Of a stretch of DNA of 64,000 nt, positions 30,916 through 39,734 are shown piece after piece. The translations under genes and the position numbers were made by a program. The notes beneath the pieces were generated by a model. The model was not told the DNA's origin and did not search any database. It was given only the letters and a program-made list of their open reading frames with translations. This stretch comes from Escherichia coli (GTDB lineage: Bacteria > Pseudomonadota > Gammaproteobacteria > Enterobacterales > Enterobacteriaceae): the NCBI RefSeq assembly GCF_044647545.1, contig NZ_CP172818.1; one strand, written 5' to 3'. Position 1 is the stretch's first letter. Each line of letters starts with the position of its first letter.

Positions 30916-32937
30916 ATGAGTAAACCGTTCAAACTGAATTCCGCTTTTAAACCTTCTGGCGATCAGCCAGAGGCGATTCGACGTCTCGAAGAGGGGCTGG
31001 AAGATGGCCTGGCGCACCAGACGTTACTTGGCGTGACTGGCTCCGGGAAAACCTTCACCATTGCCAATGTCATTGCTGACCTTCAGCGCCCTACCATGGT
31101 ACTTGCGCCCAACAAAACGCTGGCGGCCCAGCTGTATGGCGAAATGAAAGAGTTCTTCCCGGAAAACGCGGTGGAGTATTTCGTCTCCTACTACGACTAT
31201 TATCAGCCGGAAGCCTATGTACCGAGTTCCGACACCTTCATTGAGAAAGATGCCTCGGTAAACGAACATATCGAGCAGATGCGTTTGTCCGCCACCAAAG
31301 CGATGCTGGAGCGGCGTGATGTGGTTGTGGTGGCATCGGTTTCCGCGATTTATGGTCTGGGCGATCCTGATTTATATCTCAAGATGATGCTCCATCTTAC
31401 GGTCGGTATGATTATCGATCAGCGCGCGATCCTGCGTCGACTGGCGGAGCTGCAATACGCTCGTAATGATCAAGCCTTCCAGCGCGGTACTTTCCGCGTT
31501 CGTGGGGAGGTGATTGACATCTTCCCGGCAGAATCGGATGACATTGCACTTCGCGTGGAACTGTTTGACGAGGAAGTGGAACGATTGTCGTTATTTGATC
31601 CGCTCACCGGGCAGATTGTTTCCACTATTCCACGTTTTACCATCTACCCGAAAACGCACTACGTCACACCGCGCGAGCGCATTGTGCAGGCGATGGAAGA
31701 AATTAAAGAAGAACTGGCTGCCAGACGCAAGGTGCTGTTGGAAAACAACAAACTGCTGGAAGAGCAGCGGCTGACCCAGCGTACCCAGTTTGATCTGGAG
31801 ATGATGAACGAGCTGGGCTACTGTTCGGGGATTGAAAACTACTCGCGCTTCCTCTCCGGTCGTGGACCGGGTGAGCCACCGCCGACGCTGTTTGATTACC
31901 TGCCTGCCGATGGGCTGCTGGTGGTCGATGAATCTCACGTTACCATTCCGCAAATTGGCGGCATGTATCGCGGTGACCGGGCGCGTAAAGAGACGCTGGT
32001 GGAGTACGGCTTCCGCCTGCCATCAGCGCTGGATAACCGTCCGCTGAAATTTGAAGAGTTCGAAGCATTAGCGCCGCAAACCATCTATGTTTCGGCGACG
32101 CCGGGTAATTACGAGCTGGAAAAATCCGGCGGCGATGTGGTGGATCAGGTGGTGCGTCCAACAGGCTTACTTGACCCGATTATTGAAGTGCGTCCGGTAG
32201 CGACACAGGTCGATGATCTTCTATCGGAGATTCGTCAGCGAGCGGCAATTAACGAACGCGTACTGGTTACAACTCTGACCAAGCGGATGGCGGAAGATCT
32301 CACTGAATATCTCGAAGAACACGGTGAGCGCGTGCGTTATCTTCACTCAGATATCGACACCGTCGAACGTATGGAGATTATCCGCGACTTGCGTCTGGGT
32401 GAGTTCGACGTATTGGTAGGGATCAACTTACTGCGCGAAGGTCTGGATATGCCGGAAGTGTCGCTGGTGGCGATCCTCGACGCTGACAAAGAAGGCTTCC
32501 TGCGTTCCGAACGTTCGTTGATCCAGACCATTGGTCGTGCGGCACGTAACGTTAACGGTAAAGCGATTCTCTACGGCGATAAGATCACCCCATCAATGGC
32601 GAAAGCGATTGGCGAAACCGAACGTCGCCGCGAGAAACAGCAGAAGTACAACGAGGAACACGGCATTACGCCGCAAGGCTTGAACAAGAAAGTGGTCGAT
32701 ATCCTGGCGCTGGGGCAGAACATTGCCAAAACCAAAGCGAAGGGCAGAGGAAAATCGCGCCCGATTGTTGAGCCAGATAATGTGCCGATGGATATGTCGC
32801 CTAAAGCGTTGCAGCAGAAGATCCATGAACTGGAAGGGTTGATGATGCAACACGCGCAGAATCTGGAGTTCGAAGAAGCGGCGCAAATTCGTGACCAGTT
32901 GCATCAGCTGCGTGAGCTGTTTATTGCCGCGTCGTGA
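30916..32937 (+). CDS. uvrB: excinuclease ABC subunit B
   Basis: 673-aa ORF with Walker A GVTGSGKT, helicase motifs and C-terminal UvrB-UvrC interaction helix; LexA box upstream. Confidence 0.98.
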
Positions 32938-32942
32938 CAAGA

Positions 32943-32971
32943 ACGAAGCCGGAATATTCTTCCGGCTTCGT
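32943..32971. terminator. bidirectional terminator hairpin between uvrB and ybhK
   Basis: Perfect palindrome acgaagccggaa-tatt-cttccggcttcgt between the two convergent stop codons. Confidence 0.75.
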
Positions 32972-32972
32972 G

Positions 32973-34134: not shown

Positions 34135-34277
34135 CTAGTATCGGCTTAACCACTAAACACTCTAGCCTCTGCACCTGGGTCAACTGATACGGTGCTTTGG
34201 CCGTGACAATGCTCGTAAAGATTGCCACCAGGGCGAAGGAAGAAATGACTTCGCCTCCCGTATCTGGAAAGGTGTAC
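34135..34277 (+). promoter_or_regulatory. moaA leader RNA: molybdenum-cofactor (Moco) riboswitch region
   Basis: Structured leader directly upstream of moaA containing CGCCUCCC and GGAAAGG near the RBS; assigned from knowledge of the E. coli moaA leader; boundaries approximate. Confidence 0.6.
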
Positions 34278-35267
34278 ATGGCTTCACAACTGACTGATGC
34301 ATTTGCGCGTAAGTTTTACTACTTGCGCCTGTCGATTACCGATGTGTGTAACTTTCGTTGCACCTACTGCCTGCCGGATGGCTACAAACCGAGCGGCGTC
34401 ACCAATAAAGGCTTTCTTACCGTCGATGAAATTCGCCGGGTTACGCGCGCCTTCGCCAGTCTTGGCACCGAAAAAGTCCGTCTGACGGGCGGTGAGCCAT
34501 CTTTACGCCGCGACTTTACCGATATCATCGCCGCTGTGCGAGAAAACGACGCTATCCGCCAGATTGCGGTCACCACCAATGGTTACCGTCTGGAACGCGA
34601 TGTGGCGAACTGGCGCGATGCTGGACTTACTGGCATCAACGTCAGCGTTGATAGCCTTGACGCTCGCCAGTTTCATGCCATTACCGGGCAGGATAAATTC
34701 AACCAGGTCATGGCAGGGATCGATGCTGCATTTGAGGCCGGTTTTGAGAAGGTCAAAGTCAATACCGTGCTGATGCGTGATGTTAATCATCATCAGCTCG
34801 ACACCTTTCTGAACTGGATCCAGCATCGCCCTATCCAGCTGCGTTTCATCGAATTGATGGAAACGGGCGAGGGCAGCGAGCTCTTCCGTAAGCATCACAT
34901 CTCTGGTCAGGTTCTGCGGGACGAGCTACTGCGTCGCGGCTGGATCCACCAATTACGTCAACGCAGCGACGGTCCCGCGCAAGTCTTTTGTCATCCGGAT
35001 TACGCCGGAGAGATTGGCCTTATCATGCCGTATGAAAAAGACTTCTGCGCCACTTGCAACCGCCTGCGCGTTTCCTCCATTGGTAAACTCCATCTCTGCC
35101 TGTTTGGTGAAGGCGGCGTTAACCTGCGCGATCTGCTGGAAGACGATACCCAGCAACAGGCGCTGGAAGCGCGTATTTCAGCGGCGCTGCGGGAGAAAAA
35201 ACAGACCCATTTCCTGCATCAAAACAACACCGGTATTACGCAAAACTTATCGTACATTGGTGGCTAA
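34278..35267 (+). CDS. moaA: GTP 3',8-cyclase (radical SAM)
   Basis: Start chosen at [31 protein letters not shown] (radical-SAM cysteines); the upstream in-frame extension is the leader RNA. Confidence 0.95.
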
Positions 35268-36528: not shown

Positions 36529-36981
36529 ATGGCAGAAACCAAAATTGTTATCGGCCCGCAGCCGTTCAGCGTAGGAGAAGAGTATCCGTGGCTGGCGGAG
36601 CGTGATGAAGACGGTGCGGTAGTCACCTTTACCGGTAAGGTGCGCAACCATAACCTTGGCGACAGCGTCAAAGCATTAACCCTCGAACACTATCCGGGGA
36701 TGACTGAAAAAGCACTGGCAGAAATTGTCGATGAAGCGCGTAACCGCTGGCCGCTGGGGCGCGTCACGGTGATTCACCGCATCGGGGAATTATGGCCGGG
36801 CGATGAAATCGTTTTTGTCGGTGTCACCAGTGCGCATCGCAGCAGTGCGTTTGAAGCCGGGCAGTTTATTATGGATTATCTCAAAACCCGCGCACCGTTC
36901 TGGAAGCGCGAAGCCACGCCGGAAGGCGACCGCTGGGTCGAAGCTCGGGAGAGCGATCAGCAGGCGGCAAAACGCTGGTAG
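36529..36981 (+). CDS. moaE: molybdopterin synthase catalytic subunit
   Basis: 150-aa ORF starting 2 nt after moaD stop. Confidence 0.95.
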   Translation: MAETKIVIGPQPFSVGEEYPWLAERDEDGAVVTFTGKVRNHNLGDSVKALTLEHYPGMTEKALAEIVDEARNRWPLGRVTVIHRIGELWPGDEIVFVGVTSAHRSSAFEAGQFIMDYLKTRAPFWKREATPEGDRWVEARESDQQAAKRW

Positions 36982-37117
36982 TTTTTTGTTAGCCGGATAA
37001 GGCACCGCTGCGTCCGGCAATTTCACCGCTCAGTATATGCGTTTACGCTGCGTCGATGCACAGCCTCATCATTTTGCAGTATCCTTAAGATATTCCTTAT
37101 ATCTTCAGGAGATCGTC

Positions 37118-37822
37118 ATGGACAGATTCCCACGTTCTGATTCAATCGTACAAACCCGAACTGGCCTGCAAACCTATATGGCACAGGTCTATGGCTGGAT
37201 GACAGTAGGCTTGCTGCTTACTGCGTTTGTTGCCTGGTATGCGGCTAATTCCGCGGCCGTTATGGAGCTATTATTCACCAACCGCATCTTTTTAATTGGT
37301 CTGGTAATAGCACAATTAGCTCTGGTTATTGTGTTATCAGCGATGATTCAAAAGCTGAGCGCAGGTGTAACGACGATGCTCTTTATGCTTTATTCCGCGC
37401 TGACTGGCCTGACGCTTTCCAGTATTTTCATTGTCTATACCGCTGCTTCTATCGCCAGTACTTTCGTCGTTACTGCCGGGATGTTCGGCGCAATGAGCCT
37501 GTACGGTTACACCACGAAGCGCGATCTAAGTGGTTTCGGCAATATGCTGTTTATGGCGTTGATCGGCATTGTGCTGGCATCGCTGGTCAACTTCTGGCTG
37601 AAAAGCGAAGCGTTGATGTGGGCAGTCACATACATCGGCGTGATTGTCTTTGTCGGATTGACGGCGTATGACACCCAGAAACTGAAAAATATGGGTGAGC
37701 AGATTGATACCCGCGACACGTCGAACCTGCGCAAATATTCCATTCTTGGCGCGTTGACCTTGTATCTGGACTTCATCAACCTGTTCCTGATGTTGCTGCG
37801 GATCTTCGGCAACCGCCGTTAA
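37118..37822 (+). CDS. ybhL: Bax inhibitor-1 (BI-1/UPF0005)-family inner membrane protein
   Basis: Start chosen at MDRFPRSDSIVQ with AGGAG RBS (234 aa); 7-TM profile; intrinsic terminator downstream. Confidence 0.9.
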   Translation: MDRFPRSDSIVQTRTGLQTYMAQVYGWMTVGLLLTAFVAWYAANSAAVMELLFTNRIFLIGLVIAQLALVIVLSAMIQKLSAGVTTMLFMLYSALTGLTLSSIFIVYTAASIASTFVVTAGMFGAMSLYGYTTKRDLSGFGNMLFMALIGIVLASLVNFWLKSEALMWAVTYIGVIVFVGLTAYDTQKLKNMGEQIDTRDTSNLRKYSILGALTLYLDFINLFLMLLRIFGNRR

Positions 37823-37841
37823 TTCTTTTTTCACCATCAAT

Positions 37842-37869
37842 ATCCCGGCCTGGTGCCGGGATTTTTTTC
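37842..37869 (+). terminator. ybhL intrinsic terminator
   Basis: atcccggcc-tggt-gccgggat hairpin followed by TTTTTTT. Confidence 0.8.
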
Positions 37870-38028
37870 TTACTAAAAACGACACTTAACAAGTACCAGG
37901 TATAAAATATGCCTTATGGCCGAGCGGAAGTGTTTTCTGTATCCATAAATGCAAAAGTATTTTGTATGCGTGGTTTTAAATTTATTGATGGTGAATATTA
38001 ATGTTTTTTTCTAAGGACAACAAAAAGA

Positions 38029-38742
38029 ATGGAATCATTCTCACAAAATAGCAATAAATTAGATTTTCAGCACGAAGCCAGGATATTAAACGGCATATGG
38101 CTCATTACCGCTTTGGGTTTGGTGGCAACCGCAGGGCTGGCCTGGGGCGCTAAGTATCTCGAAATTACGGCAACAAAATATGATTCACCGCAAATGTATA
38201 TTGCTATAGGATTATTATTACTTTGTATGTATGGCTTAAGTAAGGATATCAACAAGATAAATGCCGCCATCGCAGGCGTAATATATCTGTTTTTAATCTC
38301 TTTGGTGGCGATTGTCGTTGCGAGTTTAGCGCCTGTATCTGCCATTATCGTCGTGTTCAGCACTGCGGGATCGATGTTTTTAATCAGTATGCTGGCAGGT
38401 CTATTGTTTAAATTTGATCCTGGTTCTCACCGTTTTATCATTATGATGACGTTGGCAGGGTTGGCCCTGGTAATCATCGTGAATGCCACATTAATGAGTG
38501 AACGACCCATTTGGGTAATAAGTTGCTTAATGATTGTCTTATGGTCAGGCATTATCTCGCATGGACGAAATAAGCTCCTTGAATTGACAGGAAAAAGCCA
38601 TAGTGAAGAATTATGGAGTCCGGTTCGTTGTGCTTTTATAGGTGCATTAACACTCTATTACTATTTTATCGGCTTCTTTGGGATTCTTGCCGCTATAGCT
38701 ATAACGCTTGTCTGGCAAAGGCATACGCGGTTTTTTCATTAG
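38029..38742 (+). CDS. ybhM: BI-1-like inner membrane protein
   Basis: 237-aa multi-TM ORF; shares the C-terminal GALTLY motif with YbhL. Confidence 0.88.
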   Translation: MESFSQNSNKLDFQHEARILNGIWLITALGLVATAGLAWGAKYLEITATKYDSPQMYIAIGLLLLCMYGLSKDINKINAAIAGVIYLFLISLVAIVVASLAPVSAIIVVFSTAGSMFLISMLAGLLFKFDPGSHRFIIMMTLAGLALVIIVNATLMSERPIWVISCLMIVLWSGIISHGRNKLLELTGKSHSEELWSPVRCAFIGALTLYYYFIGFFGILAAIAITLVWQRHTRFFH

Positions 38743-38777
38743 CCGTAAATGCACATACTAAAGAACTTAACTATACT

Positions 38778-39734
38778 TCACATCGCCGCTTCATTTTTCG
38801 CCCGCAGCTTCTTCGCCTGGCTTTCCAGTACCAGATAGCAAACCAGCGCCAGCAGCAGCGGGATAAAGTAATACAGCACACGGTAAGCGAGTAGGGCGGC
38901 GATAATTGTGCCCTTGGATGTATGCTCCCCAGCCAGTAGCGCGATAAACACCGCTTCCAGCACACCAATCCCCGCTGGAATATGCACGATGACGCCAGCA
39001 ATACTACTAACCAGTAACACGCCCAGTACAAAGAAATAGTTCACGCTTTGACCAAGTAACAGCCAGATAATCGCCCCCATTACCATCCAGTTAACACTGG
39101 AAATCAGCATTTGGGCGAGGGCGAATTTCCATGAAGGCAGCACCAGTTTTTGTCCTTTGATGGTCATATGGCGGTGCTTCGCGAAAGCGCAAAACCACAA
39201 ATAAACCGCGATAATCATCAGTAAGCCAATGCCGAGAATGCGCAGCGTGGTTTGATCGACATACCAGTGGTCCGGCAACTCCACCACGCCTGCGGTAAAG
39301 ATAACCCCCGCTAGCAAAATATAGCCTAGCCAGTTGGTGGTAATACTGAGCGAAAAAATCCGCGTAATAGTGCTGCCCGGTAACCCCAGTCGGGAGTACA
39401 AACGATAGCGCATACCAATGCCGCCGACCCAGGTACTGAGTGTCAGGTTGAAGGCGTAGCAGATAAACGACACCAGCATCACCTGGCGCTTCGCCAGTTT
39501 GTGACCGCAGTAGAAACGGGCGAGCAGGTCGTAGCAACCGTAAATCAGATAACTGACGACCACCAGCCCGACCGCACTAAGCAGCGCAACGCGATTGTAG
39601 TCGCGGATGACCTTCCAGACCTCTTCCCAGTCCACTTTTTTGGCGTAGACCACCAACAACACAATCACCGCGATAAAAAACAGCCAGGTGAGGAGTTTCT
39701 TTGCTAAGCGCCAGCGTGGGTGTGATTTACTCAT
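38778..39734 (-). CDS. ybhN: inner membrane protein, MprF-like flippase-type domain (UPF0104)
   Basis: 318-aa polytopic ORF; start overlaps the clsB stop. Confidence 0.9.
   Translation of the reverse strand: MSKSHPRWRLAKKLLTWLFFIAVIVLLVVYAKKVDWEEVWKVIRDYNRVALLSAVGLVVVSYLIYGCYDLLARFYCGHKLAKRQVMLVSFICYAFNLTLSTWVGGIGMRYRLYSRLGLPGSTITRIFSLSITTNWLGYILLAGVIFTAGVVELPDHWYVDQTTLRILGIGLLMIIAVYLWFCAFAKHRHMTIKGQKLVLPSWKFALAQMLISSVNWMVMGAIIWLLLGQSVNYFFVLGVLLVSSIAGVIVHIPAGIGVLEAVFIALLAGEHTSKGTIIAALLAYRVLYYFIPLLLALVCYLVLESQAKKLRAKNEAAM

Follow-up and report, generated by a model that had tools for sequence, protein, structure and literature searches.

Do the two neighbouring Bax inhibitor-1 (BI-1) genes of Escherichia coli, ybhL and ybhM, back each other up, or do they encode proteins with different roles? 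The question is raised by a 64,000-nucleotide stretch of E. coli DNA (RefSeq assembly GCF_044647545.1, contig NZ_CP172818.1; hereafter the window), where the two genes follow one another at positions 37118-38742, and where a preliminary description had suggested that such a tandem pair invites a test for redundancy. The gene pair as such is already known, since RefSeq and Pfam carry ybhL and ybhM as named genes of the BI-1/YccA family; a published functional study of either gene was not found, the two appearing just in passing in tables of proteomics and interaction data, and the remark that the functions of the bacterial BI-1 family are unclear was a fair one (PMC7876416). The analysis described here makes it probable that these are two independently transcribed, anciently paralogous BI-1 genes, with YbhL as the conserved canonical member and YbhM as a fast-evolving accessory protein that is not redundant with it.

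The family membership of both proteins was followed with a hidden Markov model search using Pfam PF01027 (Bax1-I), for which the gathering score is 34.1 bits. YbhL reached 211.3 bits over residues 18-230, and YbhM 65.3 bits (E 8.7e-18) over residues 19-222, so that the assignment of YbhM to the family, proposed from the letters, held. A direct BLASTP comparison of YbhL and YbhM gave 25% identity over 151 amino acids (E 5e-12), and the alignment of a YbhM-subfamily profile with a canonical profile by hhalign gave a probability of 99.8% (E 1e-29) over 211 colinear columns. All three methods thus agree that the neighbours are paralogues, as had been claimed, and the sequences indicate that the paralogy is real and ancient, i.e., that the pair did not arise by a recent tandem duplication.

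The GALTLY motif that had been noticed near both C-termini was located by pairwise alignment to YbhL 211-216 and YbhM 205-210, within transmembrane helix 7 (TM7), the best-conserved helix of the family, with G205, A206 and Y210 of YbhM conserved in at least 90% of 66 aligned sequences. With such conservation around it, the motif is a signal of homology and not of chance. The longer TM7 motif GALxLYLDFINLF is complete in YbhL (GALTLYLDFINLF) and is found in part in YbhM, where GALTLY is kept and is followed by YYFIGFF. The predicted seven-helix architecture was also borne out by the AlphaFold2 models, which have seven long helices in both proteins (predicted local distance difference test score, pLDDT, 91.3 for YbhM and 93.7 for YbhL); YbhL has in addition a short helix of 9 residues at 46-54. 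A crude hydropathy scan found seven transmembrane segments in YbhL and missed TM4 of YbhM at the threshold used.

The difference between the two proteins is seen at the residues that define the channel. The only structurally characterised bacterial member of the family is BsYetJ, a pH-sensitive Ca2+ leak with a di-aspartyl sensor, Asp171-Asp195 (10.1101/722926). In the YbhL–YetJ alignment (E 1.8e-8) both aspartates are kept, as D185 and D218, and in the 66-sequence alignment the two sensor columns hold Asp in 42/48 and 41/48 of the canonical rows. YbhM has G179 and Y212 at these columns, and both aspartates together occur in 0 of the 18 YbhM-like rows. Neither YbhM alone nor the YbhM-subfamily profile matched YetJ when searched against PDB sequences, and a Foldseek search with the YbhM model placed YetJ rows at ranks 16 and 25, with TM-scores of 0.35-0.42 and E>1. 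This mismatch between the YbhM model and YetJ could be a real repacking of the helices or a modelling artefact.

These observations bear first on the idea of a redundant tandem duplicate, in which YbhL and YbhM would both be Ca2+/H+ leak channels providing mutual backup. The two genes are adjacent, on the same strand and of similar length, both belong to Bax1-I and they have the TM7 motif in common, all of which would fit such a pair; against this stand an identity of only 25%, the absence of both sensor aspartates from YbhM, and the retrieval of YetJ by the predicted YbhL model but not by that of YbhM. GC content, promoter and constraint also differ between the genes, most Enterobacterales that carry ybhL are without ybhM, and ybhM is truncated in many E. 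coli genomes (see below). Redundancy is therefore very improbable, as the pair did not arise by recent tandem duplication and the channel-defining residues are missing from YbhM, and the proposed redundancy test is less promising than had been suggested.

The arrangement of the two genes and of the elements around them is as follows, with positions counted in the window.

36529-36981, plus strand: moaE, the final gene of moaABCDE and the upstream boundary (RefSeq annotation of the identical record)
37057-37085, plus strand: ybhL promoter-like site TGCACA-17-TATCCT (sequence reading; matches PMC3946193)
37107-37111, plus strand: AGGAG ribosome-binding site of ybhL, 6 nt before the ATG
37118-37822, plus strand: ybhL coding sequence, 234 amino acids, canonical TMBIM/BI-1 family inner-membrane protein with seven transmembrane helices
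37823-38028, plus strand: ybhL–ybhM spacer, 206 bp, AT-rich (~38% GC), flagged 'HNS' in PMC3946193
37842-37869, plus strand: ybhL intrinsic terminator (stem 37842-37862, T-run 37863-37869), folding free energy (dG) -14.3 kcal/mol
37879-37906, plus strand: ybhM promoter-like site ACGACA-16-TATAAA (hexamers match PMC3946193)
38029-38742, plus strand: ybhM coding sequence, 237 amino acids, divergent BI-1 family paralogue, GC 41%
38778-39734, minus strand: ybhN (LPG_synthase_TM domain), convergent with ybhM and the downstream boundary

The listing of open reading frames (ORFs), the reading of the sequence and RefSeq agree on two consecutive plus-strand genes of 234 and 237 codons, as first described. 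The mechanical ORF of ybhL opens at 37037; RefSeq and all homologues begin with MDRFPRSD, at 37118. Upstream of ybhM, an AAGGA sits 11 nt before the ATG.

The strong intrinsic terminator that had been reported behind ybhL was confirmed by folding: an 8-bp stem with 6 G-C pairs and a 5-nt loop is followed by seven T residues, and the energy listed above corresponds to a z of -3.1 relative to shuffled sequences. The hairpin is kept in E. coli strains that carry a third BI-1-family gene at this site (see below) and in an Escherichia genome without ybhM. In an in vitro map of constitutive RpoD promoters, separate promoters were assigned to ybhL (TGCACA-17-TATCCT) and to ybhM (ACGACA-16-TATAAA), and the spacer between the genes was flagged for H-NS (PMC3946193). 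In the window, both pairs of hexamers are found unchanged. A simple promoter scan also found the ybhM -35 ACGACA, paired with an overlapping -10 TAAAAT at an 18-nt spacing, and missed the ybhL site. Since the terminator is combined with published separate promoters, the separate transcription of ybhL and ybhM that had been thought probable is supported. An Rfam scan of 36900-38900 with permissive thresholds found no ybhL-leader motif or small RNA, its matches being chance ones on the terminator that stayed below threshold; no terminator was found 3′ of ybhM in the 35-bp ybhM–ybhN gap. That the spacer might be the deletion scar of a third paralogue was considered and rejected, as only the ybhL 3′ end and the terminator are shared with the strains carrying that gene, the remainder of the 206 bp giving matches of ≤17 nt that were non-significant.

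The two genes also differ in composition and in constraint. The GC content, the GC content at third codon positions (GC3), and the pairwise synonymous divergence (dS) and ratio of nonsynonymous to synonymous divergence (dN/dS) of the window against K-12 were as follows.

ybhM: GC 41%, GC3 42%; dN/dS 0.14, dS 0.22
ybhL: GC 49%, GC3 61%; dN/dS 0.028, dS 0.27
ybhN: GC 52%, GC3 66%; dN/dS 0.029, dS 0.19
clsB: GC 55%, GC3 60%; dN/dS 0.012, dS 0.088
moaE: GC 57%, GC3 61%; dN/dS 0.061, dS 0.094

ybhM is thus AT-rich, with a GC3 of 42% against 60-66% in its neighbours, and its dN/dS is about five times theirs. For ybhL, ybhM and ybhN, dS is 0.19-0.27, against ~0.09 for moaE and clsB, a two- to threefold difference that suggests an imported or anciently diverged ybhL–ybhM–ybhN haplotype. 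The ybhL of the window is itself a minority allele of mosaic make-up: its first 320 nt (37118-37440) are 90.3% and its last 385 nt 97.1% identical to K-12, with only 4 amino-acid changes over the entire gene, and at ≥99% identity the allele occurs in only 167/5424 genomes.

Variation within the species was followed by megablast in complete E. coli genomes (n=5426) at ≥80% coverage. Under these settings ybhL was covered in 5424/5426 genomes and ybhM in only 4601/5426, leaving ~15% below the threshold, an upper bound for disrupted ybhM, as divergent alleles can lead megablast to split an alignment. Among the variants there were an in-frame deletion allele of 129 amino acids, a replacement by the insertion sequence IS1, and, in strain RR1, an insertion of IS5. 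Between ybhL and ybhM, 749-793/5426 genomes (~14%), IAI1 included, carry a third BI-1-family gene (234 amino acids, WP_001299026); its product is 24% identical to YbhM, and neither the window nor K-12 has the gene. Its position in strains such as IAI1 is given here by extracted locus.

L087 6001-6705 and L089 1743-2447: third BI-1-family gene

Such numbers might suggest that ybhM is a decaying relic, silenced by H-NS, turning into a pseudogene and functionless at present: about 15% of the genomes fall below 80% coverage of it, insertion sequences and an in-frame deletion occur in some, the gene is AT-rich behind a spacer flagged for H-NS, and its dN/dS is about five times that of the neighbours. 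This ratio is nonetheless far under 1, the 237-aa ORF is retained over E. coli allele classes that are 6-7% apart in DNA and also in E. albertii, and the subfamily has residues that are invariant or nearly so across members only 24-35% identical. The relic explanation is accordingly unlikely.

How far the YbhM-like subfamily extends was followed by a phmmer search with YbhM against 1.84 billion representative proteins, which returned only 101 proteins at E≤1e-3. Beyond Escherichia YbhM and its fragments, these comprised ~10 full-length intermediates of 24-35% identity, and the named members were all Enterobacteriaceae (Escherichia including cryptic clades, two Salmonella clusters, Kluyvera georgiana, Superficieibacter and Pseudocitrobacter), a list to which Phytobacter can be added. 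Within the subfamily A28, W39, M116, F117, G144 and G205 are invariant, and C201 nearly so. In a synteny survey of 80 species-representative loci found with YbhL, the moaE side was kept across Enterobacterales, and ybhL–ybhN synteny was seen at 45/80 loci, 38/45 of which had a gap of <200 bp with no intervening gene. A YbhM-like gene occupied this gap only in E. albertii, a Pseudocitrobacter metagenome-assembled genome and Phytobacter among the species surveyed; the copies in the gap number 0 to 2, most other genera sampled having none, and in one Escherichia genome the site is precisely empty, the ybhN 3′ end coming immediately after the ybhL terminator.

In Salmonella and Kluyvera, in the contexts that could be read, the YbhM-like gene stands immediately 3′ of ybhL. 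The Salmonella gene is followed by genes for two unannotated multi-transmembrane proteins (~202 and ~185 amino acids) to form a three-gene cassette, which occurs at two places, the ybhL–ybhN gap and downstream of guaA, in copies that are 36-45% identical. The guaA-side cassette lies in an island with a TsiV-family type VI secretion system (T6SS) immunity gene, a transposase and DUF1266 genes. In E. albertii NBRC 107761 the region 3′ of ybhL holds a 553-aa sulfatase/EptA-like gene, an 81-aa C-terminal ybhM fragment, a DUF3969 gene and a full-length YbhM paralogue, 36% identical, which retains the second Asp. The extracted loci concerned are the following.

L085 5001-6908 and L092 5001-6900: Salmonella enterica cassette
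L006 4706-8247: E. albertii NBRC 107761, region 3′ of ybhL

The Salmonella 202-aa and 186-aa partner proteins had no Pfam match; of the three Pseudocitrobacter neighbour ORFs, two had none and the third a sub-threshold DUF7338 match only. In a PADLOC search for defence systems, YbhL, YbhM and the third E. coli paralogue gave no match, and neither did the proteins of the Salmonella cassette.

By its sequences and gene contexts, this distribution points to an accessory, possibly mobile, family of YbhM-like proteins more than to a simple local duplication; the pattern might also have arisen by descent with numerous losses. A stronger version would make them mobile cassette genes for conflict or niche adaptation, e.g., for membrane protection against a toxin or phage, with the ybhL–ybhN gap as an integration hotspot. 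The divergence of members within one bacterial family (just 24-35% identity), the 0 to 2 copies at one site with a precise empty counterpart, and the Salmonella unit at two loci, one of them beside the T6SS immunity gene and a transposase, would be in keeping with this. It is nevertheless quite unlikely, given that PADLOC had no match, that no toxin, integrase or repeat boundary adjoins E. coli ybhM, that the partner genes are absent from E. coli, and that the single pairwise dN/dS gave no sign of positive selection. In a combination of these elements, YbhM would be a distinct, fast-evolving TMBIM offshoot, so far known only from Enterobacteriaceae, that lost the sensor, perhaps repacked its helices and moves as an accessory cassette with the ybhL–ybhN gap as its hotspot. 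Its role would then have nothing to do with Ca2+/H+ leak and might lie in protecting the membrane during conflict with phages or other bacteria, or in modulating YbhL or FtsH. This combined reading is tentative and rather doubtful.

The mention of FtsH comes from YccA, for which binding to and degradation by FtsH/HflKC are documented (PMC7876416). At the sensor columns E. coli YccA has E and S, and because it is thus likewise without the Asp pair, a YccA-like protein-binding or modulator role for YbhM may be guessed at by analogy. The NCBIfam YccA equivalog NF007765 has a cut-off of 353 bits, which neither protein reached (YbhL 23.9 bits, YbhM no match). To our knowledge, no link to FtsH is known for either YbhL or YbhM.

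In the reading favoured here, YbhL would be the conserved housekeeping member, with a di-aspartyl pH sensor (D185/D218) and the YetJ fold, and because these are retained from YetJ it would most likely act as a pH-gated cation (Ca2+)/proton leak channel. YbhM belongs to a small, fast-evolving accessory subfamily, so far found in Enterobacteriaceae alone, which in Escherichia is placed behind the ybhL terminator in the ybhL–ybhN gap. It is unlikely to duplicate the YbhL channel function, because of G179/Y212, relaxed constraint, frequent truncation or loss, its own promoter and its AT-richness, and it is most likely a membrane protein that is weakly expressed and dispensable, and whose role has diverged from that of YetJ.

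Several points weigh against this reading. YbhM is still under purifying selection, as its dN/dS of 0.14 and an apparently full-length ORF (at least 80% covered) in ~85% of the genomes show, and so must have some function; the proportion of disrupted genes is, as said, an upper bound. The H-NS link comes from one in vitro screen, and the Ca2+/H+ leak role of YbhL is extrapolated by analogy from one Bacillus homologue at 27% identity. The loss of the Asp pair in YbhM does not prove that ion conduction was lost, and the YccA-like suggestion finds no direct support in the equivalog comparison, where YbhL scored far below the cut-off and YbhM gave no match.

The window comes from an E. coli chromosome of the sequence type 648 (ST648) kind, and the locus itself is as annotated in NZ_CP008697.1 (E. 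coli ST648), to which 36900-38900 of the window is 100% identical over 2 kb: the order is moaE, ybhL, ybhM and the convergent ybhN–clsB–ybhP, with both genes at matching coordinates and each named "Bax inhibitor-1/YccA family protein". Farther upstream, a molybdenum-cofactor riboswitch, a known element, precedes moaA at ~34146-34290 (annotation of the identical RefSeq record). The uvrB–yvcK spacer (window ~32936-32972) is about 156 bp longer in K-12 (191 bp vs 37 bp), and the additional K-12 sequence is probably a repetitive extragenic element.

For further work on the family, it follows that the canonical YetJ-like candidate for a bacterial pH-gated Ca2+ leak is YbhL rather than YbhM, that ybhL and yccA make the more sensible redundancy set, and that strains need to be chosen with care, since the number of YbhM-like genes in E. 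coli is none, one or two depending on the strain. As a degenerate branch of TMBIM whose presence and copy number vary at one fixed place in the chromosome, the YbhM-like subfamily is a modest curiosity, and the incremental additions made here are the subfamily without the Asp pair, its variable copy number, the Salmonella three-gene cassette and the structural mismatch of the YbhM model.

Compared with known systems, YbhL and YbhM have the Pfam family (PF01027, UPF0005) and the architecture of seven transmembrane helices in common with eukaryotic BI-1/TMBIM6 and the other TMBIM proteins, but they are bacterial inner-membrane proteins with no apoptosis context. The counterpart of the Asp pair in TMBIM6 is Asp188/Asp213, a pair that YbhM does not have. 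Within E. coli the third BI-1 family paralogue is the FtsH protease modulator YccA, encoded at a separate locus beside tusE, which resembles YbhM in being without the Asp pair and is only 23% identical to YbhL. A further comparison is that with YetJ of Bacillus subtilis (PDB 4PGR and related), whose D171 and D195 are replaced by G and Y in YbhM, and on which the YbhM model does not appear to superpose; YbhL, in contrast, is 27% identical to YetJ with a longer N-terminus, and is predicted to keep its fold, its model retrieving YetJ.
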